Shown here: positions 1,382 to 37,302 of the stretch, piece after piece
Layout: the number at the start of each line of letters is the position of its first letter
Numbering within the stretch: the stretch's first letter is position 1
DNA from: Chloroflexota bacterium
Lineage (GTDB): Bacteria > Chloroflexota > Dehalococcoidia > SM23-28-2 > RBG-16-64-32
Assembly: GCA_029262695.1 (NCBI GenBank)
Contig: JAJCYV010000022.1
Location: 49,787 to 113,786 of the forward strand
Reading direction: 5' to 3'
Length of the DNA: 64,000 bases
Notes under the pieces: model-generated
What the model saw: the letters and a program-made list of their open reading frames with translations, nothing else
Told to the model about the DNA's origin: nothing
Database searches by the model: none
Program-made: the position numbers and the translations under genes

Positions 1382-2634
1382 TCCCGGTATCCGCGCTATT
1401 GGACGGAAGCGTCCGCCCAGAGGACGCTCTGCGGCACCGGCGGTCCACCGCCAGGCTCCCTTCCCACCTCATTCACTACTCACAGGACAAGAAGCCCGTC
1501 GTTGTCTGGAACGGCACGCGGCGCTGCAACCTGCACTGCATGCACTGCTACGCTTCGGCCACCAACCGGGAGGACCCGGGCGAGCTGACCACAGACGAGG
1601 CCGTGCAGCTCATCGACGACATCGCAGCCTTCGGCTCACCGACGATGCTCTTCTCTGGTGGAGAGCCCCTGATGCGGGCAGACATCTTCGACCTGGCCGC
1701 CCACGCCTCTCGCCGCGGCCTCCGCTGCGTCCTCTCAACCAACGGCACGCTGATCACCGACAAAGTAGCGCGGCAGATTAGCGAGGCCGGGTTCGTCTAC
1801 GTCGGCATTAGCCTGGACGGTATGAGGGACGTGCACGACAAGGTACGCGGCAAGAAGGGCTCATTCGACGAAGCGCTGGCGGGGATCCGCCGCTGCCGGG
1901 ACATCGGCATGAAAGTAGGCGTCCGCTTCACGCTGCACGGCAAGAACGTGCAAGACCTGCCGGCAGTCCTCGATCTGCTGGAGGAAGAGAACATCCCCCG
2001 CTTCTGCATGTACCACCTCGCCTACGCGGGGCGCGGCGATCAGATTCGGCGCTTTGACCTGAGCCCGGCCGAGACGCGGGCCGCCATGGCATATCTGTTC
2101 CAGCGCGTCGAAGACTTCCACCGCCGCGGCATCGGCAAAGAGATACTGACAGTCGACAACCACGTCGACTCCGCCTACCTCTACCTGCGCATGCGCGAAG
2201 AGGACCCGGAGCGCGCGGATGAAGTCCTCCAGCTCCTCGGCTGGAACGGGGGCAACCAGTCAGGGATCGCTGTAACTTCAATCGACCCGGTGGGGAACGT
2301 GCACGCCGATCAGTTCTCGTGGAACTACAGCTTTGGCAACGTCCGGGAGCGGCCTTTCAGCGCTATCTGGCCCGACCGCTCCGATCCCAGGATGGCGGTC
2401 TTGAAGGACCGCAAGAGCCACCTCAAGGGACGCTGCAAGTCCTGCCGGTTCCTCGATATCTGCAACGGGAACCTGCGCGCCCGCGCCGAGAGCTACTTCG
2501 ACGACTTCCTCGCCCCGGATCCGGCCTGCTACCTCACAGATGAGGAGATCGGGATCAGCGCCGGCTCTCCACAGGCCCTTGAAGCAGCGGAATGGCCCGT
2601 ACCCGTCCAGCAGGCCGCGGAGGCAGTTTCGTGA
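1378..2634 (+). CDS. Radical SAM / SPASM-domain protein, AhbC/AhbD/NirJ-like (heme-related radical SAM), paralog 1
   Basis: ATGA overlap with the hemA stop. It has the CNLHCMHC CxxxCxxC radical-SAM motif about 55 aa in, then GGEPL and a C-terminal Cys-rich SPASM-like region (CKSCRFLDICNGNLRARA). The true start is ATG 1378, inside track ORF 1084..2634. Confidence 0.7.
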   Translation: MIPVSALLDGSVRPEDALRHRRSTARLPSHLIHYSQDKKPVVVWNGTRRCNLHCMHCYASATNREDPGELTTDEAVQLIDDIAAFGSPTMLFSGGEPLMRADIFDLAAHASRRGLRCVLSTNGTLITDKVARQISEAGFVYVGISLDGMRDVHDKVRGKKGSFDEALAGIRRCRDIGMKVGVRFTLHGKNVQDLPAVLDLLEEENIPRFCMYHLAYAGRGDQIRRFDLSPAETRAAMAYLFQRVEDFHRRGIGKEILTVDNHVDSAYLYLRMREEDPERADEVLQLLGWNGGNQSGIAVTSIDPVGNVHADQFSWNYSFGNVRERPFSAIWPDRSDPRMAVLKDRKSHLKGRCKSCRFLDICNGNLRARAESYFDDFLAPDPACYLTDEEIGISAGSPQALEAAEWPVPVQQAAEAVS

Positions 2635-3791
2635 ACGACCCGGGCCCGGCCACGCGCGAGACCGGCGCCACAGTGCGCCACGGGATGGACGCCCGCCTGG
2701 CGGAGTCCAACTTTGACCGGTCGCCCTTCGTCCTGGCATGGGAGATCACCCGCGCTTGCGCGCTGTCCTGCCTGCATTGCCGGGCCGAAGCCCAGCCGAA
2801 GCCCGACCCAGACCAGCTAACCAGCAAGGAGGCGCTGAGCCTGGTCGACGAGATCGCGGAGATGGGCAACCCCATCCTCGTGGTTACCGGCGGCGACCCG
2901 CTTATGCGCCGCGATGCCTTCGACATCCTTACTTATGCCGTCCAAAAGGGGCTGCGCACGTCCCTGACACCCAGCGCCACGGCACTGGTGACACCAGAGA
3001 ACCTGGCGCGGGTACGAGAGACCGGCGTCAGTCGCGTAGCGATCAGCCTTGACGGCCCCTCCGCCGAAGTCCACGACCGCTTCCGCGGCTTCCGTGGCTC
3101 CTTCGATCGGACGCGGCAGATCATGCGAGACGTGATCGAAGCTGGTCTCTCTCTTCAGATCAACACGACCGTTAGCCGCTACAACCTGCCTGTCCTGGAG
3201 CAGATGCCGGACATAGTCGCACAGGCGCAGGCCGTCCAGTGGAGCGTCTTCTTTCTCGTGCCCACGGGCCGGGGCAAGGAGAGCGACATGATTTCAGCAG
3301 AGGACCACGAGCGGCTCTTCAACTGGCTATACGACCTCTCCCGCAGCGCGCCGTTCGACGTCAAGAGCACCGCCGCGCCCGCCTACCGGCGGGTGGCAGT
3401 ACAGCGGGCCCAGAAGGAGCAGCACAACGGCGCCGATGGCCGGCCGATAGCTGGTGCAGGTTACCGTTTCCAGGACGGTCTGCACCGTCCCACGCTGGGT
3501 GTGAACGACGGCAACGGGTTCTGCTTCGTTTCCCACGTTGGCGAGGTCTGCCCGTCCGGCTTCCTCCCGCTATCAGCAGGCAACGTCCGCACCCAGGGCC
3601 TCGCCGACCTGTACCGAAACTCGAAGCTGTTCCGCGATCTGCGCGACCCCGCAGAGCTGAAGGGCAAGTGCGGCGTCTGCGACTTCCGTAGCGTGTGCGG
3701 CGGCAGCCGCGCCCGGGCCTGGGCGGTAAACGGCGACTACCTCGCGGAAGACCCCTCGTGCGTGTATTCGCCGGCTGAGGAGCCGGCGTGA
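2631..3791 (+). CDS. Radical SAM / SPASM-domain protein, AhbC/AhbD/NirJ-like, paralog 2. Alternative starts are ATG 2592 and ATG 2685.
   Basis: CALSCLHC radical-SAM motif, GGDPL, and a C-terminal CGVCDFRSVCGGSRARA SPASM-like block. Its architecture parallels the upstream gene. GTG 2631 overlaps the upstream stop as GTGA. Confidence 0.65.
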   Translation: MNDPGPATRETGATVRHGMDARLAESNFDRSPFVLAWEITRACALSCLHCRAEAQPKPDPDQLTSKEALSLVDEIAEMGNPILVVTGGDPLMRRDAFDILTYAVQKGLRTSLTPSATALVTPENLARVRETGVSRVAISLDGPSAEVHDRFRGFRGSFDRTRQIMRDVIEAGLSLQINTTVSRYNLPVLEQMPDIVAQAQAVQWSVFFLVPTGRGKESDMISAEDHERLFNWLYDLSRSAPFDVKSTAAPAYRRVAVQRAQKEQHNGADGRPIAGAGYRFQDGLHRPTLGVNDGNGFCFVSHVGEVCPSGFLPLSAGNVRTQGLADLYRNSKLFRDLRDPAELKGKCGVCDFRSVCGGSRARAWAVNGDYLAEDPSCVYSPAEEPA

Positions 3792-4054
3792 ACGCGGTGC
3801 GAACCGGCGATGAGGAAGTTAAGCGCAGGAGCGCCGGGAGGATCGTGCTAAGGATCGTAATGAGGGTTGTGATGCCCTCGTTGATGCTTGGCTTCGCGGC
3901 GTACACGGTGGCAAACGGTGGACTCCAGGGTCTGGTTGCCCTGCTCCCCATTCTGGCCGCGCACGTCGTTGGCTTCCTCGTGATCTTTCCGCTTTGGGTC
4001 CGCTTCCGGCGAAGGCGCGTCGCCACTTCCGCCGCGGTGCCTGATGGCAACTGA
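3788..4054 (+). CDS. Small hydrophobic membrane protein (hypothetical), translationally coupled on both sides
   Basis: GTG start overlapping the radical-SAM stop (GTGA). The 88 aa product has two hydrophobic helices. Its 3' end overlaps the start of the next gene. Confidence 0.3.
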   Translation: MNAVRTGDEEVKRRSAGRIVLRIVMRVVMPSLMLGFAAYTVANGGLQGLVALLPILAAHVVGFLVIFPLWVRFRRRRVATSAAVPDGN

Positions 4055-4682
4055 GGCCACCAACCGGCGATCTCTCCTGAGGCCCGTTGGCATCGGCCTT
4101 GCGGCCCTTTTCATGGGGCTGCTCCTATTGGCAGGCGCCTGGATGCTCTGGATCTTCGTACTTCGTCCCCCGCCCGACGGTTTCGCCCCCACCACCGGTG
4201 AGGCCTCCGGCATCGATGACCAGCAGACAAGCGTGCTTCAGTACACGATCGACGCCAGGAGTCGAGAGGACTGGGTGTACTTCAGCTTCGAGGAGGGGAT
4301 GGTCATATCCACCTCACAGGACGCGCTGGACTGGGACCTGGCGGTCCGCCGCAACGACCTGCTCACCAACGGCGGCGAAAGCAACCCGCTGGGCATGGGT
4401 GGGGCCGTCGATCTGGGCAAAGTCACTCTTGCTGAGGCTGTGGCGCCCAGCGACGGCTTTCTGACAGACGAGACCCACGAAGACCGCGGGCTTGAAAACC
4501 CGGACTTGCACAAGTGGTACAACTACAACTGGACTACGCACATCATAACGAGCAAGGACCACACCTACGCTCTCCGAACACCGTCGGGTGAAGTGGCGCT
4601 GCTGACCTTTGTCTCCTACTACTGCGATGACGGATCATCGGGCTGTGTAACGTTCCAGTACCGCGGGCCCGAAGAGCGCTGA
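4044..4682 (+). CDS. HmuY-like (heme-binding-family) protein with N-terminal membrane anchor
   Basis: N-terminal TM helix (IGLAALFMGLLLLAGAWMLWIFVL). Core DWDLAVRRND...NGG resembles the HmuY-family W-D-x-A-F-R-N / NGG signature, and a Cys-containing C-terminus (YYCDDGSSGCVTF) follows. Confidence 0.4.
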   Translation: MATEATNRRSLLRPVGIGLAALFMGLLLLAGAWMLWIFVLRPPPDGFAPTTGEASGIDDQQTSVLQYTIDARSREDWVYFSFEEGMVISTSQDALDWDLAVRRNDLLTNGGESNPLGMGGAVDLGKVTLAEAVAPSDGFLTDETHEDRGLENPDLHKWYNYNWTTHIITSKDHTYALRTPSGEVALLTFVSYYCDDGSSGCVTFQYRGPEER

Positions 4683-17524: not shown

Positions 17525-17556
17525 CATAGGGGGGATGTCCGGACATCCCCCCTATG
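17525..17556. terminator. Perfect 30-bp palindrome (ATAGGGGGGATGTCC/GGACATCCCCCCTAT) between the convergent pyk and DOMON-like genes. It is a probable bidirectional terminator.
   Basis: 15-bp arms with no loop mismatch. It sits 245 bp after the pyk stop and 13 bp after the minus-strand stop at 17569. Confidence 0.5.
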
Positions 17557-17568
17557 ATCGGAGTTCAG

Positions 17569-18612
17569 CTACGCAGAGCGGGCCCGGACTCGCAGGTACA
17601 GAGACCCGAGTCCAACCACGACAGCCGCGCCGCCAAGGGCAAGAACCAGCATCAGCGCGGTAGACACGCCGCCATCGTCGCCGGGTGCGCCGCCTGTGGT
17701 CGGGACGCTGCCCGGGCTGGCGGTGGGTCCGGGTGTGGCTGTGTCCTGGGCAGCGCCCGGCAGGCTGGTGACGATCCATCCTGAGTCCGCACTTGTGAGG
17801 TGGCCGGTGTCCGTCCAGCCGGTCAGGCCCTCGTCAGCATCCCAGTAAGCCAGGGCGATCTTTGCAGTGCCACCAGCTACGAACTGGGCGTCCTCAATGT
17901 CGCCCGTCTGCAGCGGACGCGACATCTCGAAGGTCCAGGTGCCAGCCTCGCCGATCGTGGCACTCGTGTGGCTCCAGGACCCAGCGAGACTGTTTTCGGC
18001 ACCGGAGGCACTCGCGGTCTTGCCGTCGTCTTCGCGGGTCTCCGGATCAGTGGCGTACTCGTCGTCCATGTTGCAGTCCGGGTAGTTGCCGCTCCCGGCG
18101 TCGCCGCCACCGGACATCGCACCGGCGGCGCAGTCCAGCTCCCAGTGCCAGATGTCCACCATCCCCAGACCGGCCTCGAAGTCGCTATCGCCGGAGCCCA
18201 TGTGGGGGCCGGCAGCCGCGTCGATGAGGAACTGCACGGCGAGAGCCGCCGACATTTTGTGGTCATTGGGAGGGACAACACCATCGAAGTCGTAGTCGTC
18301 CGGCACCTCAACCAACACGTAGATGTTGGTGTCATCGGTAGCGACCTTGAGGGTCACGTCCACCGGGTCAAGCGGGCCGGGTGCGTCCCAGTCAACGCCG
18401 GCGGGGATCTCGAACTGTTTCAGGTTGACCGTGAGGCCGGTGATGGCCGCCCAATCGGCGCTGTTGCCGTCCACGGTGATCGTGGCGTCGGCCGCGTCCA
18501 GGCTCAGGTCTGCCTGGGCGGTGCCGCTGCCGACCATCAGGACCAGCGCAAGGGCCGCGGCGATCACGGCTCCCAGGCCTGCGGACCGAAGCGTACTTGT
18601 CCAGCTACTCAT
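17569..18612 (-). CDS. Secreted DOMON/EB_dh-like (CBM9-like fold) protein, paralog 1. Sec signal peptide and C-terminal TM anchor.
   Basis: Signal peptide (...GSGTAQA/DLSL). An ITVDG-x3-DW start, PHMG, MVDIWHWELDC, PDCNMDDE and GHLTSADSGWI blocks are shared with the two paralogs. C-terminus has a Pro/Thr linker and a hydrophobic anchor. GAGGAGG RBS. Confidence 0.55.
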   Translation of the reverse strand: MSSWTSTLRSAGLGAVIAAALALVLMVGSGTAQADLSLDAADATITVDGNSADWAAITGLTVNLKQFEIPAGVDWDAPGPLDPVDVTLKVATDDTNIYVLVEVPDDYDFDGVVPPNDHKMSAALAVQFLIDAAAGPHMGSGDSDFEAGLGMVDIWHWELDCAAGAMSGGGDAGSGNYPDCNMDDEYATDPETREDDGKTASASGAENSLAGSWSHTSATIGEAGTWTFEMSRPLQTGDIEDAQFVAGGTAKIALAYWDADEGLTGWTDTGHLTSADSGWIVTSLPGAAQDTATPGPTASPGSVPTTGGAPGDDGGVSTALMLVLALGGAAVVVGLGSLYLRVRARSA

Positions 18613-18715
18613 TTTGATTACCTCCTCTTTCGTACTTTTTCATGACGCGGGCAATATTGTGTCGCGTTGCTTATACCCTCCTTCTCCATGGTGGGTCAAC
18701 ATTCGGGGGGAAACT

Positions 18716-19681
18716 CTACGGGAGCCTCACCTCTATCCAGCCGCTTTCGGCACTCTGCAGGTGCCCGGTGTCCGTCCAGCCCTCCAGCGTTTCGTCCGGA
18801 TCGAAGTAGGCAAGCGCCATCAGCGCGGTGCCGCCGCTTTCGAACTGGGCATCCTCAGCGTCACCTGTCTGCAGGGGCCTTGACATCTCGAAAATCCAGA
18901 CGCCGACTGCATCCGGGCCGTCCGCGCTCGCAGTATGCGTCCAGACGCCAACCAGGCTATTCTCTGCATCGGCGTTGGCGGTGTCACCACCTCCATCATC
19001 CTCACGGTCTTCTGGATCAAGCGCGAACTCGTCGTCCAGGTTGCAGTCGGGGTCGTCGCCACTCCCGGGATCGCCCCCACCGGATGCAAGTCCGGCAGCG
19101 CAGTCCAGCTCCCAGTGCCAGATGTCGACCATCCCCAGGCCCAGCTCCAGGTCCTCATCCTCGGCACCCATGTGAGGCCCGGCGGCCGCATCGATGAGGA
19201 ACATCACGGCGAGCGAAGGAGAGAGGTTATGGTCGGCCGGGTCGAAGTCGTAGTCGTCGGGCACCTCCACCAACGCATAGAGGTTCCCACCGTCAGTGGC
19301 CATCTTCAGCGTGACATCGATGTCGTCGAGAGGCCCGGGCTCATCCCAATCCACGCCGGACGGGATCTCTATCTGTTCCATCGGCACGGTGACGCCCTCG
19401 ATATCACTCCAATCCGAACTGTCCCCGTCCACGGTGATCGTCGCTGTCGCGGCGTCGAGCGTGATCTCGTCACCATCACCCGCGTCGGTCGGTGCGGCCG
19501 TGGGAGCATCCGTGGGATCATCCGTGGGGGCATCCGTTGGTGCCGCCGTGGGCTCCGCCGTCGGTGACGCTCCGTCATCGTCGTCGCCGCCGCAGGCCAC
19601 GGCCACAAGCGCCAGCACTGCGAGCGCCGCCAGCAGAACAATCACTGCCTTCGCTCCTCTGCGGGTTAGTAGATTCATCAT
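18716..19681 (-). CDS. Secreted DOMON/EB_dh-like protein, paralog 2. N-terminal signal peptide or possible lipoprotein, with an acidic PT-rich linker.
   Basis: Start MMNLLTRRGAKAVIVLLAALAVLALVAVAC-GGDDDDG after an AAAGGAGA RBS. The track ORF 18716..19912 is over-extended. It has the same conserved blocks as paralogs 1 and 3 (PHMG, MVDIWHWELDCAAG, PDCNLDDE, GHLQSAESGWIEV). Confidence 0.55.
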   Translation of the reverse strand: MMNLLTRRGAKAVIVLLAALAVLALVAVACGGDDDDGASPTAEPTAAPTDAPTDDPTDAPTAAPTDAGDGDEITLDAATATITVDGDSSDWSDIEGVTVPMEQIEIPSGVDWDEPGPLDDIDVTLKMATDGGNLYALVEVPDDYDFDPADHNLSPSLAVMFLIDAAAGPHMGAEDEDLELGLGMVDIWHWELDCAAGLASGGGDPGSGDDPDCNLDDEFALDPEDREDDGGGDTANADAENSLVGVWTHTASADGPDAVGVWIFEMSRPLQTGDAEDAQFESGGTALMALAYFDPDETLEGWTDTGHLQSAESGWIEVRLP

Positions 19682-19748
19682 CTCCGGTCTCCTTTCATTT
19701 CTCCGGCGTGTGTGGCTGGCATCGTCACTCCGTTCAACATCCCTGGGC

Positions 19749-20216
19749 TCAGTCGGAGCCCTCCTGCCCGATAGCCTCCAGGAACGCGAACAGTCGTTCG
19801 GCTTCTTCGTCACTAAGGGTCTCTTCAACAAATGCAGGCATCCCTTTCGGGCCCTTACGCACTTCCTGCAAGAACTCCGAGAGATTGAAGTCGGACGCAT
19901 CAATGTCTCCACCCACCGTCGCGCCCTGGCCCGTCAGGCCGTGGCAGCTCGCGCAGTTGTTTGCGAAGAACAGGATTCGCCCGTCGGTGAGGGGGTCGCC
20001 GGTCGTATGGTCCGGATCAGCGAGGGATAGGCCTTCGAATGATGCGGGCTCGCCAAGCGTGGCGAGTTCGGTCCGGTCGTAGCCCTCGGGTTCGAGGTTG
20101 TGGTGCGTATACGGGCTGCGGGCGATAATCACGCCGATGAGCGTGAACGCGAGGGCACTCATCACGATGGCGCCCATGATTGGGCCCGGCGGCACCGAGC
20201 GTCTAACGACACGCAT
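19749..20216 (-). CDS. Membrane-anchored mono-heme class I c-type cytochrome
   Basis: N-terminal TM helix, a single CASCH heme-binding site, and a downstream GMPAF Met-ligand region. The start codon overlaps the upstream stop. Confidence 0.75.
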   Translation of the reverse strand: MRVVRRSVPPGPIMGAIVMSALAFTLIGVIIARSPYTHHNLEPEGYDRTELATLGEPASFEGLSLADPDHTTGDPLTDGRILFFANNCASCHGLTGQGATVGGDIDASDFNLSEFLQEVRKGPKGMPAFVEETLSDEEAERLFAFLEAIGQEGSD

Positions 20217-21766
20217 CAGTCATCGTCCTCCAGGTGGCCTGGCTCCGAGAGCCTGTCGTCTCTGTCCAGCGAACCGCTCTCTGAGAGCCTGTCGTCCCTA
20301 TCCAGGATGCCGGCGCCAGAGAGCCTCGCTTCTTCGTCCAACCGGCCGGGGCCGCGGAAGTCAACCCTATCAGCCTCCTCGGGGACACCGGTCGCGCGCG
20401 CGATGGCGATGACGCGGACGGCGATAGTGATCAAGACCACCCACACAGTCGTTGCCACGGCGATGATGATCCAGACGCCAAGCCCCGGGATGTCGACTCC
20501 CGCCTCTGACCGGTATATCTGACCCCCTTCCGCAACCACCAGGGACTGCGAAGCGGCGACCGGCTCAGCCGCTTCCGGCAGCAGATACTCGATCACGAGG
20601 TCCTGATCGCCGGCGCGACGTGGCACGAAGTCCATCTCTGCCCGGCCGTCGTCGTCCGTAGTCGCGGCCGCCACCTCGACCATCCCGGTGACGCCCGCGA
20701 AGGTCACCTCACGGAGGATCCGCACTTGCACGCCGGCAACCGGTGACCCGTCCGTCGTGGACGTGAGCGTCACTAGGACGTCTGCCAGATCACCCACGCG
20801 TGGATCGGCCGATACGGTGATCTCTGCTTTCCCGTCAGAGTCACCGCCCGCGGGTGGCGCTATGGTGGGCGTGGGCGAGGTCGCGCCTCCCGGAGTGGGA
20901 GTCGCCGCCGGTGGCTGGGTGGCATCAGGGCCCGGTATCAGCACTTCGATCCAGCCCTCGCCGGCGCTGGTGAGATGTCCTGCGTCAGACCACCCGATGG
21001 CACTCTCGTCGGCGTCGAAGTAAGCGAGGGCGAGGAAGGCGGAGGTATTCTGTGCGAACTGGGCGTCCTCAGGATCGCCGGTCTGCAGCGGACGCGACAG
21101 CTCGAAGATCCAGGCGCCGTCGGCACCGGCACCACCGGCGCGGCCAGTGTGGTCCCAGGCGCCGGTCAGGCTGTTCTCAGCGTTCGGGTTCGCGTCGGGG
21201 CCGCCGCCATCGTCATCGCGTTCCTCAGGTTCGGTACTGAACTCGTCGTCCAGGTTGCAGTCGGGGTCATCGCCGCTGCCAGGGGCGCCTCCTCCGGCGC
21301 TTTCACCGGGGCCGCAGTCGAGTTCCCAGTGCCAGAGGTCAACCATGCCCAGGCTCTGCTCGAAGTCCTGGTCGCCTGAACCCATGTGCGGGCCCGCTGC
21401 CTGCTCGATCCGGAACATGGCGTTGGGCGAGCCCGAGAGTTTGCCGTCGTTGGGATCATAGTCGTAGTCGTCGAAGACTTTGATCAGAAAGTAGATGCGT
21501 TCGCTGTCCGCGGCGGCCTTTACCTCTGCTTGAACCGCGTCCAGGGAATCGTATTCCCAGTCGGAGCCCTGCGGTATCTCGAACTGGGCGAGCGTCAGCG
21601 TCAGACCGTCGATCCCGGCCCAGTCGGAGTCGTCCCCATCGACCGTAATGGTCGCGGCGGCCGCCGGGAGCGAGAGGTCGGCGCGAGCCGGGTCTGCTTC
21701 AGCGCCGAGTGACAGCACGACCGCGGCCAGAGCGACGGCCAGCAGGGAGATGCCCCAGGAGCGCAT
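20216..21766 (-). CDS. Secreted DOMON/EB_dh-like protein, paralog 3. It adds an Ig-like/CarboxypepD_reg-like domain, a TM helix and a repetitive acidic cytoplasmic tail.
   Basis: Signal peptide, the same PHMG / MVDLWHWELDC / PDCNLDDE / GHLTSAGEGWIEV blocks, a beta-sandwich-like segment (VRILREVTFAGVTGMVEVAAATTDDDGRAEM), a TM helix (VWIIIAVATTVWVVLITIAV), and a tail with repeated DRDDRLSE units. ATGA overlap with the NrfD stop. Confidence 0.55.
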   Translation of the reverse strand: MRSWGISLLAVALAAVVLSLGAEADPARADLSLPAAAATITVDGDDSDWAGIDGLTLTLAQFEIPQGSDWEYDSLDAVQAEVKAAADSERIYFLIKVFDDYDYDPNDGKLSGSPNAMFRIEQAAGPHMGSGDQDFEQSLGMVDLWHWELDCGPGESAGGGAPGSGDDPDCNLDDEFSTEPEERDDDGGGPDANPNAENSLTGAWDHTGRAGGAGADGAWIFELSRPLQTGDPEDAQFAQNTSAFLALAYFDADESAIGWSDAGHLTSAGEGWIEVLIPGPDATQPPAATPTPGGATSPTPTIAPPAGGDSDGKAEITVSADPRVGDLADVLVTLTSTTDGSPVAGVQVRILREVTFAGVTGMVEVAAATTDDDGRAEMDFVPRRAGDQDLVIEYLLPEAAEPVAASQSLVVAEGGQIYRSEAGVDIPGLGVWIIIAVATTVWVVLITIAVRVIAIARATGVPEEADRVDFRGPGRLDEEARLSGAGILDRDDRLSESGSLDRDDRLSEPGHLEDDD

Positions 21767-23127
21767 CAGTTCGCACCTCCGGCTGGCTCAGCAGCGGCGC
21801 CGGGCGGGGGCGCGGGAGCGGCAGACGCCAGAGATAGCTCGTAGTCCTCCTCAACCTCCCAGTGCGCCATGATGGGGAAGATCTTGACGAATATCGAGAT
21901 GAGTAACGCGAAGAGGGCGAACCCGGCCGCCATGATGGAGAACTCCACCCAGCTCGGACTGTAGCTGGAGGGTTCGTAGGGCATGAGCGGCACGCGCAGG
22001 CCGGTGACGACGATGAAGTAGCGCTCGACCCACATCCCGGCGTCAACGAAGACGGCCGCAACGAGAATGCCCCAGAAGTTCCGTGTCCACGGTAAAAGAA
22101 TGATGAGCCCCGGCAGGACAAGACCGCCGAGCATATAGAACCAGTAGAAACCGGCGTACTCCTCCCTGAACAGCTGGTTGAAGTGAAACTCCACGCCCTC
22201 TTCCAGCTTGTAGCCGGTCGTCAGGAACTCCGAGATATTGGCGTAGATCATGATCAGAGCGAAGGCTCCCATCATGTAGCCCAGGTAGATGAAGTGCTTC
22301 TCGTGGATGTACTCCTCCAGGTGGTAAATCTTGCGGAGGATCGCCATGACGATAATCAGCGTGGCGATGCCGGAGAAGATCGCCCCTGCCACGAAGAAGG
22401 CGCCGAAGATCGTGCTGTTCCACGGCTCTCGCAGCGTCATGCCGAAGATCCACGAGACGACGGTGTGGACGGAGACGGCGATCGGCAGGATCAGGAGCAT
22501 GGCCACGGTCATGGCGGAGCCCAGGTTCCGCTTCTGAGCGGCGTTGCCCACCCATCCGACTGCGAGGATGCTGTAGAGCCGGAGACGCCAGGCCGAAACG
22601 CGCCCGGCCAGCCTGTCACGGAGAAACGCCATGTCGGGGATCATCGGCAGGAACAGATAGGCGATGCTCCCCGTCAGGTAGGTCGTTACGGCCAGCACGT
22701 CCCAGACGATCGGTGACTGCCAGCGGCCGTAGAGGATGATGTTGAAGAGGCGATCCACCCGGCCCATGTCCACGATGACGAAGATGGCGCCGCACGAGAG
22801 CGCGACCACCGTAATGAATTCCGCCAGGCGGGTTATCGGCGTCCGCCAACGCGCTTGAGTTATGCGCAGTATGGCCGAAATCAACGTGCCGGCGTGACTG
22901 ATGCCGATGAAGAAGACGAACGTGGAGATGTAAAGGCCCCAGGAGATGCGATCGCGCATGTCGGTGACGATGAGGCCATCGTTGAGCTGCCCGTAGAAAG
23001 CGTATACACCCCAGCCGATCACCACCAGGAGAAAGGCGATCCACAGATAGTAGATTCGGCTGGTGTTGAGGAGCGGAGCCGTGATCGTGTGCTCCAGCCG
23101 CTGGCGCCAGGAGCTCATCTCCTCCAC
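21766..23127 (-). CDS. NrfD/PsrC-family polytopic membrane subunit (quinone-interacting)
   Basis: 453 aa with about 10 predicted TM helices and NrfD-like composition. It is translationally coupled to the FeS subunit upstream and the DOMON-like gene downstream. Confidence 0.6.
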   Translation of the reverse strand: MEEMSSWRQRLEHTITAPLLNTSRIYYLWIAFLLVVIGWGVYAFYGQLNDGLIVTDMRDRISWGLYISTFVFFIGISHAGTLISAILRITQARWRTPITRLAEFITVVALSCGAIFVIVDMGRVDRLFNIILYGRWQSPIVWDVLAVTTYLTGSIAYLFLPMIPDMAFLRDRLAGRVSAWRLRLYSILAVGWVGNAAQKRNLGSAMTVAMLLILPIAVSVHTVVSWIFGMTLREPWNSTIFGAFFVAGAIFSGIATLIIVMAILRKIYHLEEYIHEKHFIYLGYMMGAFALIMIYANISEFLTTGYKLEEGVEFHFNQLFREEYAGFYWFYMLGGLVLPGLIILLPWTRNFWGILVAAVFVDAGMWVERYFIVVTGLRVPLMPYEPSSYSPSWVEFSIMAAGFALFALLISIFVKIFPIMAHWEVEEDYELSLASAAPAPPPGAAAEPAGGAN

Positions 23128-24110
23128 GTCTTCGCCCCCTTAACCCGCTCGACCCACGGCCACTCGGTGGGCAAGCGCCCCTCGTCCGCTGTGTCGCGGC
23201 CGACGGCTTCCCCGTGGCCAGGGATGTAGTACACGCGTGGCTTCGTGCCCTTGTCTTCCTTCAGGCGGTAGGCCTGATTCTCGGAGAGGAACCGGGACGC
23301 GGCGACTATCTCCTTGCCGTTCGTGGCGACGTCGTCCTCAAGGTCTCCGTAGTAGATGGCGTCGTTGGGGCAGGCTTGAATGCAGAACGGCAGCGTCCCC
23401 GCACGGACCATGTCCGGGCAGAAGTCGCACTTCATGACAGTGCCCTTCTTTGCAGGCACCTGGTGCTCAGGCGAGTAGTCGGCGAGCAGCGCCTCCGGCG
23501 GGACCGGCGGGTCACCCCAGTTGAAGAAGCGTCGGTCGTAGGGGCAGGCCGCCATGCAGATCCGGCAACCGATGCAGCGGTCCTGGTCGATGAGCACCGT
23601 CCCCTCGGGCGTCGAGAACGTGGCCGCCACGGGGCAGACGTTGACGCACGGCGGGTTCTGGCACTGCTGGCACGGCGTGGGGATGAACTGAGTGCCGCCT
23701 CCCGGCAACTCGTGCTCAAAGATCTGAATCCACTCCATGGGCTCGGGCGCGAAGTGACCTTCGACGCAGGCGGTCGTGCACTGGGGCGGCGTGCCCTGGC
23801 TCTGGCAGCCGTCGCAGGAGCGGAGGTCGATGATCATCGTCCACTGCCGGATGCGGCCGCCGGGCCCCTTGGCAGGCTCTCCTTGCGATTCCACGACGCG
23901 TCCGGCGTCTGACGCCTTCTGCAGGACCGGGGGCAGGAGGATTAGGGGCGCAGCGCCTGCCGCGGCCATGCCGAAGAGTCTCAGCACGCCGCGCCGGCTT
24001 ACCTTCGGCGGCTGGGTCGGCTCCCCGGGCCTGTCGTCTCGGTCGCTTGCGCCTGAGCCGCCATCGTTCTTGCCCATCATCTTCTTCTCCACCTTTAGCT
24101 CACGCTTCAC
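23115..24110 (-). CDS. Tat-exported 4x[4Fe-4S] ferredoxin-type subunit (PsrB/NrfC/DmsB-like). Alternative starts lie at 24080 and 24077.
   Basis: Twin-arginine signal SRRGVLRLFGMAAAGAAP. Four Cys clusters (CDGC...C, CQQCQNPPCVNVCP, CIGCRICMAACP, CDFC...CIQACP). Confidence 0.75.
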   Translation of the reverse strand: MKRELKVEKKMMGKNDGGSGASDRDDRPGEPTQPPKVSRRGVLRLFGMAAAGAAPLILLPPVLQKASDAGRVVESQGEPAKGPGGRIRQWTMIIDLRSCDGCQSQGTPPQCTTACVEGHFAPEPMEWIQIFEHELPGGGTQFIPTPCQQCQNPPCVNVCPVAATFSTPEGTVLIDQDRCIGCRICMAACPYDRRFFNWGDPPVPPEALLADYSPEHQVPAKKGTVMKCDFCPDMVRAGTLPFCIQACPNDAIYYGDLEDDVATNGKEIVAASRFLSENQAYRLKEDKGTKPRVYYIPGHGEAVGRDTADEGRLPTEWPWVERVKGAKTWRR

Positions 24111-24331: not shown

Positions 24332-25030
24332 GTGGCAGATAAGAAACCGGTGGTGGGGACAATTCGCGTCATCATAGCGGAAGACCACGCCGTCGTGCGT
24401 GAAGGCACGCGCGAGCTCCTCGAACGAGAGAAGGACATCGAAGTCATCGGCGAGGCAGCTGACGGTGCCGAAGCCGTAGCGCTGGTCGATAAGCTCCGTC
24501 CGGACGTCGCCATCGTCGACATCTCTATGCCCGGCATGGGTGGCATAGAAGCGACGCAGAAGATTAAGGCGCTGCGCCCCTCGACAGCCGTGTTGATTCT
24601 CACCGCTTACGATGATGACCAGTACGTATTCGCGCTCCTTGGTGCCGGCGCCGCAGGGTACCTCCTTAAGGACGTGCCGTCTGCAGAGGTCGTGCGGGCC
24701 GTCAGGGCTGTGCATGCCGGGGAGCCGGTGCTCCATCCGGCCATAGCGAAGAAGGTCCTCGCCAAGATCGCGTCGGAAGCGACGAACGACGAGCCTCCCC
24801 CGCAGGCATCCAGGACGGTACTTACGGACCGCGAGCGCAACGTTCTGCGCCTGGCCGCCTGCGGAATGAGCAACGCCAGCATCGCAAGCCGGCTAAGCAT
24901 CAGCCTGCGTACTGTCCAATCACACCTGTCTCACACATTCGACAAGCTGGGGGTCGGTTCCAGAACCGAGGCCGTAATAGTCGGTCTTCGTCGCGGATTC
25001 CTCGAACTCGGTGATCTGGATGAAAGCTGA
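24332..25030 (+). CDS. NarL/LuxR-family response regulator
   Basis: REC domain (IRVIIAEDH...VAIVDISMPGMGG) plus a C-terminal LuxR HTH (RERNVLRLAACGMSNASIASRLSISLRTVQSH). GTG start. GTG 24350 is an alternative start. Confidence 0.85.
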   Translation: MADKKPVVGTIRVIIAEDHAVVREGTRELLEREKDIEVIGEAADGAEAVALVDKLRPDVAIVDISMPGMGGIEATQKIKALRPSTAVLILTAYDDDQYVFALLGAGAAGYLLKDVPSAEVVRAVRAVHAGEPVLHPAIAKKVLAKIASEATNDEPPPQASRTVLTDRERNVLRLAACGMSNASIASRLSISLRTVQSHLSHTFDKLGVGSRTEAVIVGLRRGFLELGDLDES

Positions 25031-26570
25031 AGCGAGGACAGCACCGGCAACCCGGCCGTCGCCGACAGCACGCGGTCTGTGGCTCCGGATTTCCAGACCC
25101 TTCCGCGCATTACCCCAGAGGATCCGAGAGCCGCGCTTCTGGCAGGTTCAGGCGCTGGTCGTGCTGGCCACCGCACCCCACTACATCATCGAGTCCAGCG
25201 AAGACTTTGCCAGGTTCGAGAGCTGGGGGCTTCACAGTCTGGCTATCAGCCTGTATATCCTTCCGCTCCTGTATGCGGCACTGAACTACAGATGGGAGGG
25301 GGCTCTTCTGACCGGCCTGTGGGCCGCCGCGCTCGTGTCTCCCAGCATCTGGTACTGGGACCGCGGCGAATCACACTATCTGACCGAGATAGGGCAGTTG
25401 TTGGTCACACTTCCAATCGGCCTGCTCGTAGCGTGGCGCGTCGACATTGAGGCAAGGCAACGGCGCCGGGCCGAACAGACCAGCGCCAGCTTGAGCCTAC
25501 TGAACCAGACTGGTGAGGCGCTCAGCCACACTCTGGAAGCAGAAGAACAGGTGCCTCTGGTCCTGCGCAAGCTGCTTTCGGATCTCCCCCTCGATTCCAC
25601 CTGGCTCTGCCTGGCGTCCGATTCCCAGGGCGAGCTGCGGGTCATTGCCGAACTCTCCGATGAAGGCGGCCGCGTGCCCGCGGGAATGCCGCAGGAGCGA
25701 CACGGGCGCATCGAAGACGCGCTGGCGACTCAGGTCGAGGAGGGATACGTAACGGTACCACTGCTCACGAAGGATGGGCTAGTCGGTTCTCTCGGAGCGG
25801 CCATGTCCGGTGGGGAAGACCCTACGGACGAACAGATTGAGGTGCTGACAACTGTCGCGCGGCAACTCTGCGCGGCCGTCGTCAACGCACGCCTTTACCG
25901 TGAAAGACAGGAGAGCCTGCAGTCCTACGTCAGGCACGTAACGGAGGCGCAGGAGGAAGAGCGTCTGCGCATCGCCCGGGAGCTTCACGACGAGACCGCC
26001 CAGGAGCTGATCCAACTCGTGCGCGGCCTGGAGCAGATCGACGATGGTTCCGACGACACGAGAGCGCAAGGCGTTGACGATCTAATCAAGGCAACACGAG
26101 AGACGATTCGATCGGTGCGGCGCTTCAGCCGTGACCTCAGGCCATCGGTGCTCGACGATCTCGGCCTGCTGGCCGCGATCGAGGTGATTGTGGAGGATAC
26201 CGATTCGAGACTTCCCGGGGGCGCCACGCTGCGCGTGAGTGGAAAGGCAGAGCGGGTAGCGGAGGCAGTTGAGCTGGCGTTGTTCCGCATCGCTCAGGAA
26301 TCCCTGAGAAACGTTGAGAAGCACGCCGGGGCGACGTCCGCAGCGGTCGCGCTCGACTTTGAGCCCGGCGCCATCAAACTTTCGATCTCCGATGATGGCG
26401 ATGGCTTCAACGTCTCGAACGTCTCCGATCTGGCCCGTGCTGGAAAGCTCGGACTGGTGGGCATGAAAGAGCGCTGTGAGCTGGTGGGTGGCTCGTTTGA
26501 CGTATATTCGAACCCTAAAAAGGGCACCCGCATCGTGGTCACAGTCGGCGGCAGCCAGCGAGACCTCTAG
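25011..26570 (+). CDS. Membrane sensor histidine kinase with GAF and HisKA_3/HATPase domains (NarX/DegS type)
   Basis: N-terminal TM helices, a GAF-like region, the H-box ELHDETAQELIQL (HisKA_3), and an HATPase (GLVGMKERCELVGG). It overlaps the response-regulator gene's 3' end. Confidence 0.8.
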   Translation: MIWMKAEARTAPATRPSPTARGLWLRISRPFRALPQRIREPRFWQVQALVVLATAPHYIIESSEDFARFESWGLHSLAISLYILPLLYAALNYRWEGALLTGLWAAALVSPSIWYWDRGESHYLTEIGQLLVTLPIGLLVAWRVDIEARQRRRAEQTSASLSLLNQTGEALSHTLEAEEQVPLVLRKLLSDLPLDSTWLCLASDSQGELRVIAELSDEGGRVPAGMPQERHGRIEDALATQVEEGYVTVPLLTKDGLVGSLGAAMSGGEDPTDEQIEVLTTVARQLCAAVVNARLYRERQESLQSYVRHVTEAQEEERLRIARELHDETAQELIQLVRGLEQIDDGSDDTRAQGVDDLIKATRETIRSVRRFSRDLRPSVLDDLGLLAAIEVIVEDTDSRLPGGATLRVSGKAERVAEAVELALFRIAQESLRNVEKHAGATSAAVALDFEPGAIKLSISDDGDGFNVSNVSDLARAGKLGLVGMKERCELVGGSFDVYSNPKKGTRIVVTVGGSQRDL

Positions 26571-30251: not shown

Positions 30252-30902
30252 TCAGGCGACCGCTTCGGCGAGCGCTTCCTCCATCTGCTCCAGCAAGATC
30301 AGCCCGTTGTGGACCTGTGTCACGACGCCGTCCGGACTGATGAAAACGCTGACAGGCATCCCGAGCCCGCGATACTCGTCGTACACGGAGTCATCCGGGT
30401 CGATTCCGTTGACGGGAAAGCTCACGCCGGTACCGCCGTCGGAGCGGGTCAGATCCTCCAGGAAGCCACGCGCCCGGCCGAGCGGTTCGGCCCGGTTGAC
30501 GGCGACGACGACCAGGTCGTCTGGATGGTCCGCTTGAAGCTGCTCGATATCCGGCAGTTCGGCCTTGCACGGCCCGCACCACGACGCCCAAAAGGTAACG
30601 TAGACGGCCTGTCCTCGAAGATCGCTCAGACGGTGGCGCGTCCCGTCAAAGTCCGATATCTCGAAGTCCGGAGCGAGCTTACCGGCCTGTGGGCCGACAT
30701 CGAACTGCTCGAAGCCCGGTACAGCAGCCGTGTTGAGGATCAGCGCATCTTCGATCCCCTCGCCGCCGCCCTGGCTGCCGAGCACGCCGACGAACGCAAG
30801 CGCGGCCAGAGCCGAACCGACAACTGCCGACAGGGCGACGAGCGTGGTCAGCCGCCTTCGCAGGTCCTGCACCCACGCCCTCTCGCTCAAACGTTCTGAC
30901 AT
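30252..30902 (-). CDS. TlpA/ResA-family membrane-anchored thiol-disulfide oxidoreductase
   Basis: N-terminal TM helix, and a thioredoxin-fold WCGPC active site within YVTFWASWCGPCKAELP. Confidence 0.8.
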   Translation of the reverse strand: MSERLSERAWVQDLRRRLTTLVALSAVVGSALAALAFVGVLGSQGGGEGIEDALILNTAAVPGFEQFDVGPQAGKLAPDFEISDFDGTRHRLSDLRGQAVYVTFWASWCGPCKAELPDIEQLQADHPDDLVVVAVNRAEPLGRARGFLEDLTRSDGGTGVSFPVNGIDPDDSVYDEYRGLGMPVSVFISPDGVVTQVHNGLILLEQMEEALAEAVA

Positions 30903-30903
30903 G

Positions 30904-31764
30904 CTATACCTCCGTCGATACGTCGCCCAGAAGGCCGAAGTTGAAGAGAGTGTTCAGGTTGATAAGGCTGTCCGTGAAGATGAGGACGCCCACCACGATG
31001 ATCAGGGCGCCGCTCGCGAAGTTGACGTACCCTATGTAGCGCTTGACGTAGTTGTATACGGGCTTGACGGTGCCGTAAGCGGCGCCCATGGCGAGAAACG
31101 GGACCGCCAGACCTGCCGCATAGGCGAAGAGGAGCACCCCGGCCTGGGCGACGGTGCCGCTGGACACAGCCAGCGCAAGAATAGCGCCGAGAGTTGGGCC
31201 GATACAGGGGCTCCAACCGGCAGAGAAGGTGGACCCCACGACGAAAGAGCGGGCGTACCCGATCTTGGCTCCAGAGCCGGCGTCCAGCCGGCGCTCTGCC
31301 TCAAGGAAGGGGATGGTGATTACGCCGGCGAGGTGGAGCCCGAGAATAACGAGTGTGCCGCCGGACACCTTGAAGATGATTTCCTGCTGGTCTCGCAAGA
31401 AGAACCCGATGATGCCCAGCGAGATGCCAAACAGAATGAACACGAGCGAGAAGCCGCTCGTGAAGCTAACCGCATGCAAGAAGGGCGACGGCCGAGCGAC
31501 GGCGGCGACGCTGTTTGATCCAGCCTGTCCGTGACCTGACGTCGCCATTGCCGAAGCCGTGACCAGAGTGCCGGCTCCAGCACCGGCCGCGTCCTGCACC
31601 GGCACCGAAGCGCCAGCTTTGGTCGATGGGCCTTCGAGCGACGCGCCGGTGAGATAGCCCAGGTAGGCAGGGATCAGGGGAAGGATGCAAGGGGAAGCGA
31701 TCGACAGAAGCCCGGCGAAGAAAGCAATGAAGATGCTTATGCCGCCGATCTCTGCGAAGCCCAT
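30904..31764 (-). CDS. ccdA: Cytochrome c-type biogenesis / disulfide-reductant transporter CcdA (DsbD family)
   Basis: Conserved ASPCILPLIPAYLGYLTG and GWSPCIGPTLGAIL Cys motifs in TM helices. The start is the MGFAEIGG Met at 31764 after an AGGAGGAGG RBS. Track ORF 30904..31854 is over-extended. It carries an unusually long Ala/Gly/Ser-rich loop. Confidence 0.75.
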   Translation of the reverse strand: MGFAEIGGISIFIAFFAGLLSIASPCILPLIPAYLGYLTGASLEGPSTKAGASVPVQDAAGAGAGTLVTASAMATSGHGQAGSNSVAAVARPSPFLHAVSFTSGFSLVFILFGISLGIIGFFLRDQQEIIFKVSGGTLVILGLHLAGVITIPFLEAERRLDAGSGAKIGYARSFVVGSTFSAGWSPCIGPTLGAILALAVSSGTVAQAGVLLFAYAAGLAVPFLAMGAAYGTVKPVYNYVKRYIGYVNFASGALIIVVGVLIFTDSLINLNTLFNFGLLGDVSTEV

Positions 31765-31950
31765 TCCCGTTCCTCCTCCTAACCTCAACCTGGCACCGGA
31801 CGACCCGCGCCCCACCTGTGCCTGCTGAGATCCATAATCGGTCGCGCGCATCAACGCCTCATAAACACGGCATTGGGGCCGCCTTAACGACGCTGCCCTG
31901 CGGTGCGAACGCCACTGAGGAGCGGCTATGATACAAAGCTGAGGGCCGAG

Positions 31951-36151: not shown

Positions 36152-36550
36152 GTGTCGTACCAACACAGGGTCGACCTAATACCATCCCCACCGATTCAGA
36201 CGCGGGTCTACCCGGTCCTGATCGCAGTGGGGTTTCTAATCGTCCTGGCGGCGCTGGTCATCGGAGTAGCGCTGGCAGCGACGGCATCCGACGTCTTTGA
36301 CAACACCAAGGCAGTCAGGGACGCAGCATTGCCCGGGTCTTCGCTACTGAGCGATCAGAGTGGCCTGGCGGCGGTCCCGCTCTGGGTTCAGCCGTTCACG
36401 TTCCTGGGCATCGGCTTCCTGATAGCGGGGATCTTCACCGTCTTCTGGGGCCTTCTGCGGTCACTGCGCGAGGCGCGAGGCGCGGCCATGCTGGAGGCCG
36501 TCCCGGCGCTGCTGCTGCAGCCGACGGGTGAGCCGAAGGGAGGAGAGTAG
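36152..36550 (+). CDS. Membrane protein, paralog A (single copy of a roughly 120-aa 2-TM module), uncharacterised family
   Basis: GTG start after an AGAGGAGGA RBS. Topology is TM1, a ~45 aa loop containing SDVFDNTKAVRDAA, then TM2 (WVQPFTFLGIGFLIAGIF) and an R-rich tail. It is homologous to each half of the next two genes. Confidence 0.5.
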   Translation: MSYQHRVDLIPSPPIQTRVYPVLIAVGFLIVLAALVIGVALAATASDVFDNTKAVRDAALPGSSLLSDQSGLAAVPLWVQPFTFLGIGFLIAGIFTVFWGLLRSLREARGAAMLEAVPALLLQPTGEPKGGE

Positions 36551-36552
36551 AC

Positions 36553-37290
36553 ATGGCTACTACTTCAGAGACGCTATTCGGTGGCCGCACAGTGCTGGCC
36601 AGGCCGGAAGCGACGACGATGCAGAAGGTGGCCCGCTACATGTGGGTGCCGATGCTGCTCATGGGGCTGATGGTCATCGCCGCGAGCGTGGTAATTGGCA
36701 TCACAAACGCCGCGGCCGCATCCGACTACTTCGGGCTGCCGCAGGCGGTCCGTGGGGCGGCTGACGCTCCCGCAAGCGTGATAGACGACCGGCAGTTCAT
36801 CGAGTCCACAAACGTGTGGCTGCCCGGGTTGCAGCTCCTCGGGATCGGACTGATCCTGTCGGCGATCACGTTCTCGCTGGCGAGCATCCTCGGCGTCTTC
36901 CGCGCCGGCGGCGTTCGCTTGCAGCAGGCGCTCGGCCGTGAGGCGCAGAGCCTGACCCCGCCGATCACAGCCCGGCTGTTCCCGATGCTGATGATGATGG
37001 GGCTCATGGTCCTGATCGTGAACCTCGTCATCGCGGCGATCATCGGCGGCCTCGCCTGGGACGTCTACGGCAACTCGATCGCGGAGATCAACGCCGCGCC
37101 CGAGGGTTCGGCCCTTCTGGACGACCTCGGGACGGTCAACACATACAAGACGTGGCTGGCGCCGCTCCCGTTCATCGGCATCGCGATGATCCTCGTCGGG
37201 ATATCGTTCGCCGTGCACACGATCCTGCAGGTAATCCGGTTCCAGGGCCAGCGCATCCGTGAGCTGGCTCAGGCTGGCGCGGGAAAGTAA
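36553..37290 (+). CDS. Membrane protein, paralog B (internal tandem duplication of the same 2-TM module)
   Basis: Both halves repeat the pattern TM, a SDYF/WDVYGN loop, WLPGLQLLGIGLIL / WLAPLPFIGIAMIL, and a ...RFQGQRIRELAQ tail. It starts 3 bp after paralog A. Confidence 0.5.
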   Translation: MATTSETLFGGRTVLARPEATTMQKVARYMWVPMLLMGLMVIAASVVIGITNAAAASDYFGLPQAVRGAADAPASVIDDRQFIESTNVWLPGLQLLGIGLILSAITFSLASILGVFRAGGVRLQQALGREAQSLTPPITARLFPMLMMMGLMVLIVNLVIAAIIGGLAWDVYGNSIAEINAAPEGSALLDDLGTVNTYKTWLAPLPFIGIAMILVGISFAVHTILQVIRFQGQRIRELAQAGAGK

Positions 37291-37302
37291 GGGAGGCGCA
37301 AG

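Follow-up and report, generated by a model that had tools for sequence, protein, structure and literature searches.

An NrfCD-type operon of a Chloroflexota bacterium carries three EB_dh-family paralogs with different anchors

Gene content of the operon

A six-gene operon on the minus strand of a Chloroflexota contig encodes three paralogous proteins of the EB_dh family, here called P1, P2 and P3, each attached to the cell envelope in a different way. The DNA analyzed, referred to throughout as the window, is a stretch of 64,000 nucleotides (assembly GCA_029262695.1, contig JAJCYV010000022.1, positions 49,787 to 113,786 of the forward strand), and the interval that holds the three paralogs, 17569-21766, lies within the operon. 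An initial annotation of this interval had described three DOMON-like paralogs; all three genes are confirmed on the minus strand, and all three products pass the EB_dh threshold. In order of transcription the operon encodes an NrfC-like iron–sulfur (FeS) protein, an NrfD-like subunit, P3, a monohaem cytochrome c, P2 and P1, followed by a terminator. These features, and the divergent regulatory genes beside them, are as follows.

23115..24110, minus strand: NrfC/DsrO-like four-cluster FeS subunit with the twin-arginine (Tat) signal SRRGVLRLFG (Fer4_11, E 4e-19)
21766..23127, minus strand: NrfD/DsrP-like polytopic membrane subunit of the quinone-interacting family, with multiple hydrophobic helices (PF03916 NrfD, E 7e-31)
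20216..21766, minus strand: P3, 516 residues (EB_dh profile, AlphaFold2 model and homology to the subunit X described below)
19749..20216, minus strand: monohaem cytochrome c (CASCH) with an N-terminal transmembrane (TM) anchor (Cytochrome_CBB3, E 3e-13; TM helix at residues 13-31)
18716..19681, minus strand: P2, 321 residues (EB_dh profile and lipoprotein signal)
17569..18612, minus strand: P1, 347 residues (EB_dh profile and C-terminal tail)
17525..17556, minus strand: intrinsic terminator with a 14-bp stem and a T-rich tail, closing the operon directly after P1
24332-25030, plus strand: divergent NarL-type response regulator (Pfam)
25011-26570, plus strand: divergent HisKA_3 histidine kinase (Pfam)

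The first four genes of the operon overlap one another by 1-13 bases: the NrfC-like gene runs into the NrfD-like gene, the stop of the NrfD-like gene overlaps the start of P3, and the start of the cytochrome c gene overlaps the stop of P3. Gaps of 67 bases before P2 and 103 bases before P1 each contain a GGAG or AGGAGG site of their own, and between P2 and P1 the minus strand has nothing that looks like a terminator. The NarL/HisKA_3 pair also flanks the module in 22-23 related loci.

An NrfD-family subunit beside a Tat-exported four-cluster ferredoxin places the operon among the NrfCD-type modules. The top NCBIfam match of the NrfC-like protein is DsrO, at 168 bits with a cut-off of 200, and its weaker matches include the type-II dimethyl sulfoxide (DMSO) reductase beta subunit and EbdB; the NrfD-like subunit scores 137.6 bits with the DsrP model, whose cut-off is 350. 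The operon does not match DsrMKJOP, Qrc or alternative complex III: DsrO and DsrP fall below their cut-offs and QrcC and QrcD far below, and none of the other defining subunits (DsrMKJ, QrcAB, ActA/ActF) is found in the operon.

Three anchors on one domain

The topology of the three paralogs was read from hydropathy, motif rules, conservation and a structure model, and divides them into the following segments.

18511-18612, minus strand: P1 Sec signal, ending AQA
17758-18510, minus strand: P1 EB_dh core, residues 35-285
17707-17757, minus strand: P1 Pro/Thr linker, 17 residues
17689-17706, minus strand: P1 VPTTGG motif, followed by a 10-residue spacer
17593-17658, minus strand: P1 hydrophobic TM helix of 22 residues, followed by the tail RVRARSA
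19592-19681, minus strand: P2 lipoprotein signal, ending at Cys30
19469-19591, minus strand: P2 acidic Pro/Thr tether, 41 residues
18716-19468, minus strand: P2 EB_dh core, which ends the protein
21680-21766, minus strand: P3 Sec signal peptide
20933-21679, minus strand: P3 EB_dh core
20834-20932, minus strand: P3 Pro/Thr linker
20531-20833, minus strand: P3 immunoglobulin-like (Ig-like) domain of subunit X
20390-20482, minus strand: P3 TM helix
20216-20389, minus strand: P3 acidic repeat tail

P1 has the signal peptide, the Pro/Thr linker and the TM helix that the initial annotation gave it, but its anchor is more than a TM helix. The VPTTGG motif, the helix and the basic tail form a conserved three-part C terminus that resembles a sorting signal and has the layout of the LPXTG class, with Val rather than Leu as the first residue.

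The proposed lipobox of P2 holds under a permissive pattern. P2 truly starts at ATG 19681, which has a GGAG before it, and not at 19912, where the open reading frame (ORF) has its first GTG; the signal that follows has an n-region with RR/K, an h-region and LVAVAC-GG. The strict lipobox L-[AS]-[GA]-C is unmatched because position -3 is Ala, while the permissive Gram-positive pattern fits, and the Cys after the h-region is retained in 117 homologue clusters. The 41-residue acidic linker is identical to the sequence first quoted for it and scores 29.2 bits with the Pfam PT repeat model (cut-off 26.2).

For P3, the signal, core, Ig-like sandwich, TM helix and cytoplasmic tail are all present as proposed; what changes is the status of the C-terminal half, which turns out to be a separately conserved subunit fused onto the core. 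The AlphaFold2 model (mean predicted local distance difference test score 76) has a signal helix at residues 2-20, the EB_dh sandwich at 31-277, a disordered linker at 288-308, a seven-strand beta-sandwich at 312-412, a TM helix at 429-459 and a disordered tail at 463-513. The cytoplasmic tail itself (residues 460-516, 20216-20389) is strongly acidic and made of LD(R/K)D(D/E)RLSExG repeats. These repeats are kept in P0122-P0125 and in the related locus L050, and are absent from unfused X.

Predicted topology places the P1, P2 and P3 cores in the same extracytoplasmic compartment on anchors that differ in type, so the claim of distinct anchoring holds within a shared compartment. Each anchor type is real in the further sense that it marks a paralog lineage recurring in other metagenomic lineages. 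The tethers are similar in length: 41 residues in P2, 17 plus 6 plus 10 residues to the TM helix in P1, and in P3 33 residues, the Ig domain and 16 residues. Given this similarity, depth does not appear to be encoded in the tethers, unless P1 is really transferred to the wall.

The EB_dh core

The cores are more alike than the 50-60% identity first estimated. Pairwise alignment gives 71% for P1 and P2, and 60% both for P1 and P3 and for P2 and P3. The Pfam EB_dh profile (PF09459) scores P1, P2 and P3 at 56.3, 57.3 and 48.9 bits, over a threshold of 33.3, and the cores have the beta-sandwich fold of EbdC and NxrC. In NxrC the axial ligands of the haem are Met155 and Lys305 (PMC8387239). The Met of a PHMG motif in the family profile aligns with NxrC Met155, and it is invariant in all 236 domains of a conservation set made up of the proteins and loci gathered for this comparison. 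This Met, three His, two Cys and one Arg are each found in at least 234 of the 236 domains, including all three window copies. A near-invariant His in a GH motif (235 of 236) lies about three residues from the position of NxrC Lys305, and the two invariant Cys probably form a disulfide.

A search for redox-tuning substitutions found only six core positions out of 250 that separate the three types, none of them a candidate haem ligand. The subfamily is a small one: of 1.84 billion clusters at 50% identity, 313 match it (E up to 0.001).

All three cores are extremely acidic, with 46-61 Asp and Glu against 4-8 Lys and Arg per ~250 residues and a calculated isoelectric point of about 4. From these counts the net charge of the cores is about -39 to -57. 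A saline habitat, the binding of cations or docking to a basic partner could each explain the acidity.

Related loci and the ancestral module

About 55 related loci were compared overall. A pattern scan with one genome per species gave 45 loci. The 45 are mostly from Chloroflexota and Acidimicrobiia, with a few from Thermoplasmatota and other groups, and in about 30 of them EB_dh is linked to NrfC-like and NrfD-like genes. The usual order in the linked loci is NrfC, NrfD, a gene of ~190 residues designated X, cytochrome c and EB_dh. The product of X combines a signal peptide and an Ig-like sandwich with the conserved segment LYRSxAGVxIPGLN and a single TM helix.

The origin of P3 is found in this gene. 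Residues ~310-480 of P3 match the free-standing X of 25 related loci (E 1e-37 to 7e-5), so P3 is an EB_dh copy fused to the N terminus of X, and its anchor is inherited from X. Nearly all NrfCD-linked loci have a single EB_dh gene, in the lipoprotein form with a Pro/Thr tether, which indicates that P2 is the ancestral state. As reconstructed from these gene orders, the ancestral module comprises NrfC, NrfD, X, cytochrome c and one EB_dh lipoprotein, and the P1-type copies are accessory additions at the end of the operon.

All the extracytoplasmic parts of the module are tied together by gene fusions. Five loci join X to cytochrome c, four protein clusters join cytochrome c to EB_dh, and seven join EB_dh to X. 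One cluster, P0160, joins a cupredoxin to EB_dh, its cupredoxin-like domain scoring 21.0 bits with a cut-off of 21.2. Fusions of EB_dh to a cupredoxin-like domain or to the cytochrome c of the operon are seen in P0160, P0154, P0156, P0159 and P0161 and in loci L015, L019 and L020.

The unfused X of the main Chloroflexota group has two co-occurring His, one by the predicted mature N terminus and the other in G.H.[IVL]R.[ED]Y. X proteins with both (loci L001, L002, L004-L007, L009, L011, L012, L018, L023, L044 and L048) were compared with window 20531-20833. Both His are replaced in seven of seven EB_dh–X fusions and absent from ~8 distant X proteins. The pair may form a site for metal or haem whose place is taken by the EB_dh domain in the fusions.

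Archaeal relatives in Thermoplasmatota (L039 9752-10951, L040 1514-2884 and L045 7562-8788) have the same core on a different C-terminal attachment. In L039 and L040 collagen-like GPxG repeats precede a hydrophobic helix and a basic tail; in L045 the repeats are missing and only the helix and basic tail are present.

Anchor types across the family

The tails of 169 homologue clusters were read in a census of anchor types.

Lipoprotein (P2 type): 117 clusters, 17 of them with tandem cores, two behind one lipobox in at least 16
Sec signal with C-terminal motif, helix and basic tail (P1 type): ~25 clusters
EB_dh–X fusion (P3 type): 7 clusters
Cys-flanked dockerin-like tail: 4 clusters
Cytochrome c fusion: 4 clusters

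The P1-type tails are uniform. V-P-x-T-G-G stands 7-17 residues before the helix in 22 of 25, three tails have Ala for Thr, and two to six Arg or Lys are always present among the last twelve residues. The dockerin-like label comes from a DxDxNGxxxxxD-type motif seen by eye, and no Pfam model recognizes these tails. In a rough neighbor-joining tree the P3 type forms one clade, and the P1 type falls in neighboring clades apart from the main lipoprotein clade.

Several loci combine the types.

L050 1298-9047 (GCA_012974925.1): P3-, P2- and P1-type genes in the order of the window, and a dockerin-like copy upstream of NrfC
L048: unfused X, then P2-type and P1-type genes
L046, L047 and L052: P3-type and P1-type genes, no lipoprotein
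L051: X, P1-type gene and lipoprotein, no cytochrome c
L053: dockerin-like copy upstream, then X, cytochrome c and a truncated, unclassified downstream gene

L050 thus has the three differently anchored copies that the initial annotation suggested looking for in orthologous loci, and a fourth besides; other loci have two, and most have one. The three-anchor arrangement is conserved in close relatives and is not general. In L050 the P3-type gene is split by an assembly gap and the P1-type tail reads VPKTGG. The copy upstream of NrfC in L053 carries two dockerin-like repeats. P1-type genes were never seen without a membrane-proximal copy in the same operon; in five of five distinct loci with visible context they come after a P2- or P3-type gene.

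Elsewhere on the 370,419-bp contig, outside the window, there is a second P1-type paralog, P0065, of 348 residues and with the tail motif VQTTGG. This brings the EB_dh genes of the genome to four or more, and a second module may exist.

An HmuY-like neighbor

One other gene of the window may be connected with the operon.

4044..4682, plus strand: membrane-anchored HmuY-like protein, a possible accessory haem-handling factor (PF14064, E 7e-17)

It lies 13 kb from the operon in the window. In 11 related loci an orthologue (E down to 1e-116) is the next gene downstream of EB_dh, for example at L001 10945-11601, L046 13684-14319 and L052 9127-9840. HmuY is fused to tandem EB_dh domains in P0143, and PF14064 appears in the precomputed Pfam list of P0144. 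From this association the HmuY-like protein is a candidate for the loading of haem b on the outside of the cell.

Two consecutive radical-SAM genes, the first with SPASM, directly precede the HmuY-like gene in window 1084-3791 (plus strand). The pair could encode haem or cofactor maturation enzymes.

Function of the three copies

We favor, with moderate confidence, a reading in which P1, P2 and P3 are three outward-facing copies of one haem-b carrier domain that serve a single quinone-linked membrane complex. The core complex would consist of NrfD, NrfC, X, the cytochrome c and one EB_dh lipoprotein. NrfD would provide the quinol/quinone site and NrfC the Tat-exported FeS chain, with X as a single-pass Ig-like subunit; weak NCBIfam matches suggest homology of NrfC to the beta subunit from which the gamma haem receives electrons in ethylbenzene dehydrogenase (EBDH) and nitrite oxidoreductase (NXR). 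Electrons would move between the quinone pool and extracytoplasmic partners by way of FeS clusters, haem c and haem b, with the EB_dh domain as a leashed carrier to external partners. The organism is probably monoderm and would lose a soluble carrier, which would explain why the carrier is tethered on a flexible Pro/Thr leash. P2 would be the ancestral lipid-tethered copy and P3 a duplicate fused to the N terminus of X and thus leashed to the complex itself. P1 would be a duplicate that acquired the C-terminal VPxTGG, TM helix and basic residues, and would be held by the helix, or passed to the wall if a sortase-like enzyme cleaves the tail.

Parallel or partner-specific use of the copies is preferred to action in series because one copy suffices in most genomes, because P3 apparently substitutes for P2 in several loci, and because the tethers are similar in reach and only six of 250 core positions separate the types. 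Since the anchor lineages are retained and P1 is an accessory, a relay keeps some probability, and it would gain weight if P1 is truly wall-linked.

Several observations weigh against three haem-b carriers on one complex. The operon contains no gene recognizable as a redox partner or terminal acceptor, and no catalytic molybdenum (molybdopterin alpha) subunit adjoins it. The type-II DMSO-reductase gamma model (TIGR03477) gives P1 28.4 and P3 16.2 bits with a threshold of 169.85, and does not match P2. Ten C-terminal tails were scored with TIGR01167 and all other curated NCBIfam sorting-signal models, and no score rises above noise. The Lys that ligates haem in EbdC and NxrC has no counterpart, with no conserved Lys near the position of NxrC Lys305 in the 236 domains; together with the near-invariant His close by, this leads us to infer Met/His axial ligation of haem b. 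The P1, P2 and P3 cores probably bind haem, a reading made from one aligned ligand, and sequence does not separate parallel from serial action.

Two assignments were dropped. The three proteins were rejected as gamma subunits of a nearby molybdoenzyme, the window's only molybdopterin gene being 37 kb off beside acyl-CoA dehydrogenase genes. P1 is likewise not called a sortase substrate, as no sorting-signal model matches it significantly.

The initial annotation had seen in the differing anchors a relay positioned at different depths of the envelope. Electrons would pass outward in series from P3 at the complex to P2 in the plane of the membrane and on to P1 in or on the wall after sortase-like processing, with the dockerin-tailed copy further out in relatives. 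The part of this proposal that stands is that the anchor types are real and are conserved paralog lineages. P1-type genes that always accompany a membrane-proximal copy, the four differently attached copies of L050 and the LPXTG-class layout of the P1 tail with VPxTGG in most of its relatives all speak for such an order, and a multihaem relay across the Gram-positive wall has reportedly been proposed for Thermincola. Depth as such finds less to rest on, given one shared compartment, tethers of similar length in all three, a single lipoprotein copy in most genomes and near-equivalent cores whose few type-specific substitutions give scarcely any hint of a graded potential. No ORF in the window matches the sortase motif TLxTC, and the examined flanks of related loci hold one incidental match; the P1 tail is matched by no curated sorting-signal hidden Markov model, and peptidoglycan is reportedly missing in some relatives of this class. 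A depth relay is rather unlikely on balance. A wider version of it, in which a haem-b conduit spans the envelope of monoderm Chloroflexota without multihaem cytochromes, is a long shot. Its tiers would be complex-leashed P3, lipid-anchored P2, P1 on the wall by way of VPxTGG, and the dockerin-like copy in relatives; electrons given up by quinol, or taken in from a donor outside the cell (Fe(II), for example), would hop from one to the next of these identical DOMON-type haem domains, and the extremely acidic cores and the HmuY-like haem-loading neighbor would belong to the same system.

The same near-equivalence of the cores that tells against a relay is what redundancy or gene dosage would predict. 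The copies would then be lineage-specific duplicates with no distinct role, and their anchors by-products of where each landed, as in the fusion to the neighboring X. Copy number varies from one to four among relatives, seemingly any combination is tolerated, and in loci with P3- and P1-type genes and no P2-type copy, P3 apparently takes the place of P2. However, many divergent metagenomic lineages retain P1- and P3-type copies with conserved tails (VPxTGG, and the acidic repeat tail of P3), and every copy keeps all invariant core residues, which points to purifying selection on both core and anchor and makes simple redundancy quite improbable. Still less probable, indeed very unlikely, is that the proteins are not redox carriers at all and serve as surface modules for haem capture or glycan binding. 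The superfold does include the CBM9 sugar binders, and HmuY-like haem-binding proteins are frequent neighbors and fusion partners of the family, but the top fold and sequence matches are haem-b gamma subunits, the haem Met that aligns does not vary, the genes are part of an FeS/NrfD/cytochrome c operon, and relatives fuse the domain to cytochrome c or cupredoxin.

Relation to known systems

The closest characterized relatives of the window cores are EbdC of ethylbenzene dehydrogenase (2IVF) and NxrC of the Kuenenia nitrite oxidoreductase (7B04), which belong to the same Pfam family; the Met haem ligand of NxrC aligns with the PHMG Met, and both systems have a four-cluster FeS beta subunit homologous to the NrfC-like protein. 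The differences are considerable. Identity is only 15-21%, the operon has no adjacent molybdopterin alpha subunit, and the Lys ligand is not conserved. While EbdC and NxrC are tightly bound soluble gamma subunits, the window domain is tethered by lipid, helix or fusion, occurs in three copies per operon and has NrfD as its membrane partner.

The second point of comparison is with NrfCD-type modules, including alternative complex III (ActBC and ActE), Qrc, DsrMKJOP and clusters of Methanoperedenaceae. As in the operon, these combine a cofactor-free NrfD with an FeS subunit in the periplasm and outer-face haem proteins, and ActE is a membrane-anchored monohaem cytochrome c like that of the operon. 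The operon departs from them in that its predicted output haem protein is a b-type DOMON/EB_dh domain and not a multihaem cytochrome c, and in the extra Ig-like subunit X. NrfD-like proteins are quinone-interacting, cofactor-free subunits of many respiratory complexes (PMC8076601), and in Methanoperedenaceae they occur in NrfD/FeS/multihaem clusters (PMC7327174). The subunit set of the operon is absent among the complexes covered by the NrfD review (PMC8076601).

For the use of differing anchors there is a precedent in Bacillus subtilis, a monoderm in which the paralogous extracytoplasmic carriers c550 (TM-anchored) and c551 (lipoprotein) replace a soluble carrier. These are c-type and of unrelated fold, are not in one operon with a reductase, and show two anchor types rather than three. 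In cellobiose dehydrogenase a DOMON haem domain sits on a flexible linker. The cytochrome domain of the fungal enzyme (1D7C, 4QI3) is a fold match and a distant structural relative only, and the enzyme differs in being eukaryotic, secreted, fused to a flavoenzyme and without a membrane complex.

Among archaea, CbsA is a surface haem-b protein with the EbdC fold. The model of FoxC, from the fox cluster of Sulfolobales, resembles the gamma subunit of 2IVF (PMC10654088). FoxC is likened here by its description: as in the operon, an extracellular EbdC-like protein goes with a membrane electron-transfer cluster. The partner complexes of FoxC and CbsA differ from that of the operon in being of haem-copper oxidase or Rieske/cytochrome b type.

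No description of the module was found in the NrfD review or the full-text literature searched. What appears to be new is a module of NrfCD, X and cytochrome c with a predicted haem-b DOMON output in three or four copies, each with a distinct attachment. Its value lies in an uncharacterized respiratory module and a natural series of tether variants, rather than in a demonstrated relay. Monoderms cannot keep soluble periplasmic carriers, and the link from the quinone pool to the outside is poorly known in uncultured Chloroflexota and Acidimicrobiia. A set of three or four copies attached by lipid, by helix or sorting signal, by fusion or by a dockerin-like tail amounts to a natural experiment in positioning a redox carrier, and the variants can be used to ask whether tether type matters for respiration or extracellular electron transfer. 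Because the subfamily is small (the 313 clusters given above), the impact is specialist and not general.

Other genes of the window

In window 30252-31854 (minus strand) a CcdA/DsbD_TM membrane protein adjoins a thioredoxin-like (ResA-type) protein. Such a pair carries out thiol reduction in cytochrome c maturation, in keeping with the c-type cytochrome of the operon.

Window 58469-61267 (plus strand) encodes a molybdopterin oxidoreductase of 932 residues with no evident Tat signal, beside the acyl-CoA dehydrogenase genes. No FeS or EB_dh partner adjoins it, and it is probably unrelated to the operon.

Three small membrane-protein ORFs of 132, 245 and 242 residues, without a Pfam match, stand in a row in window 36152-38031 (plus strand); the second and third are paralogous by eye.

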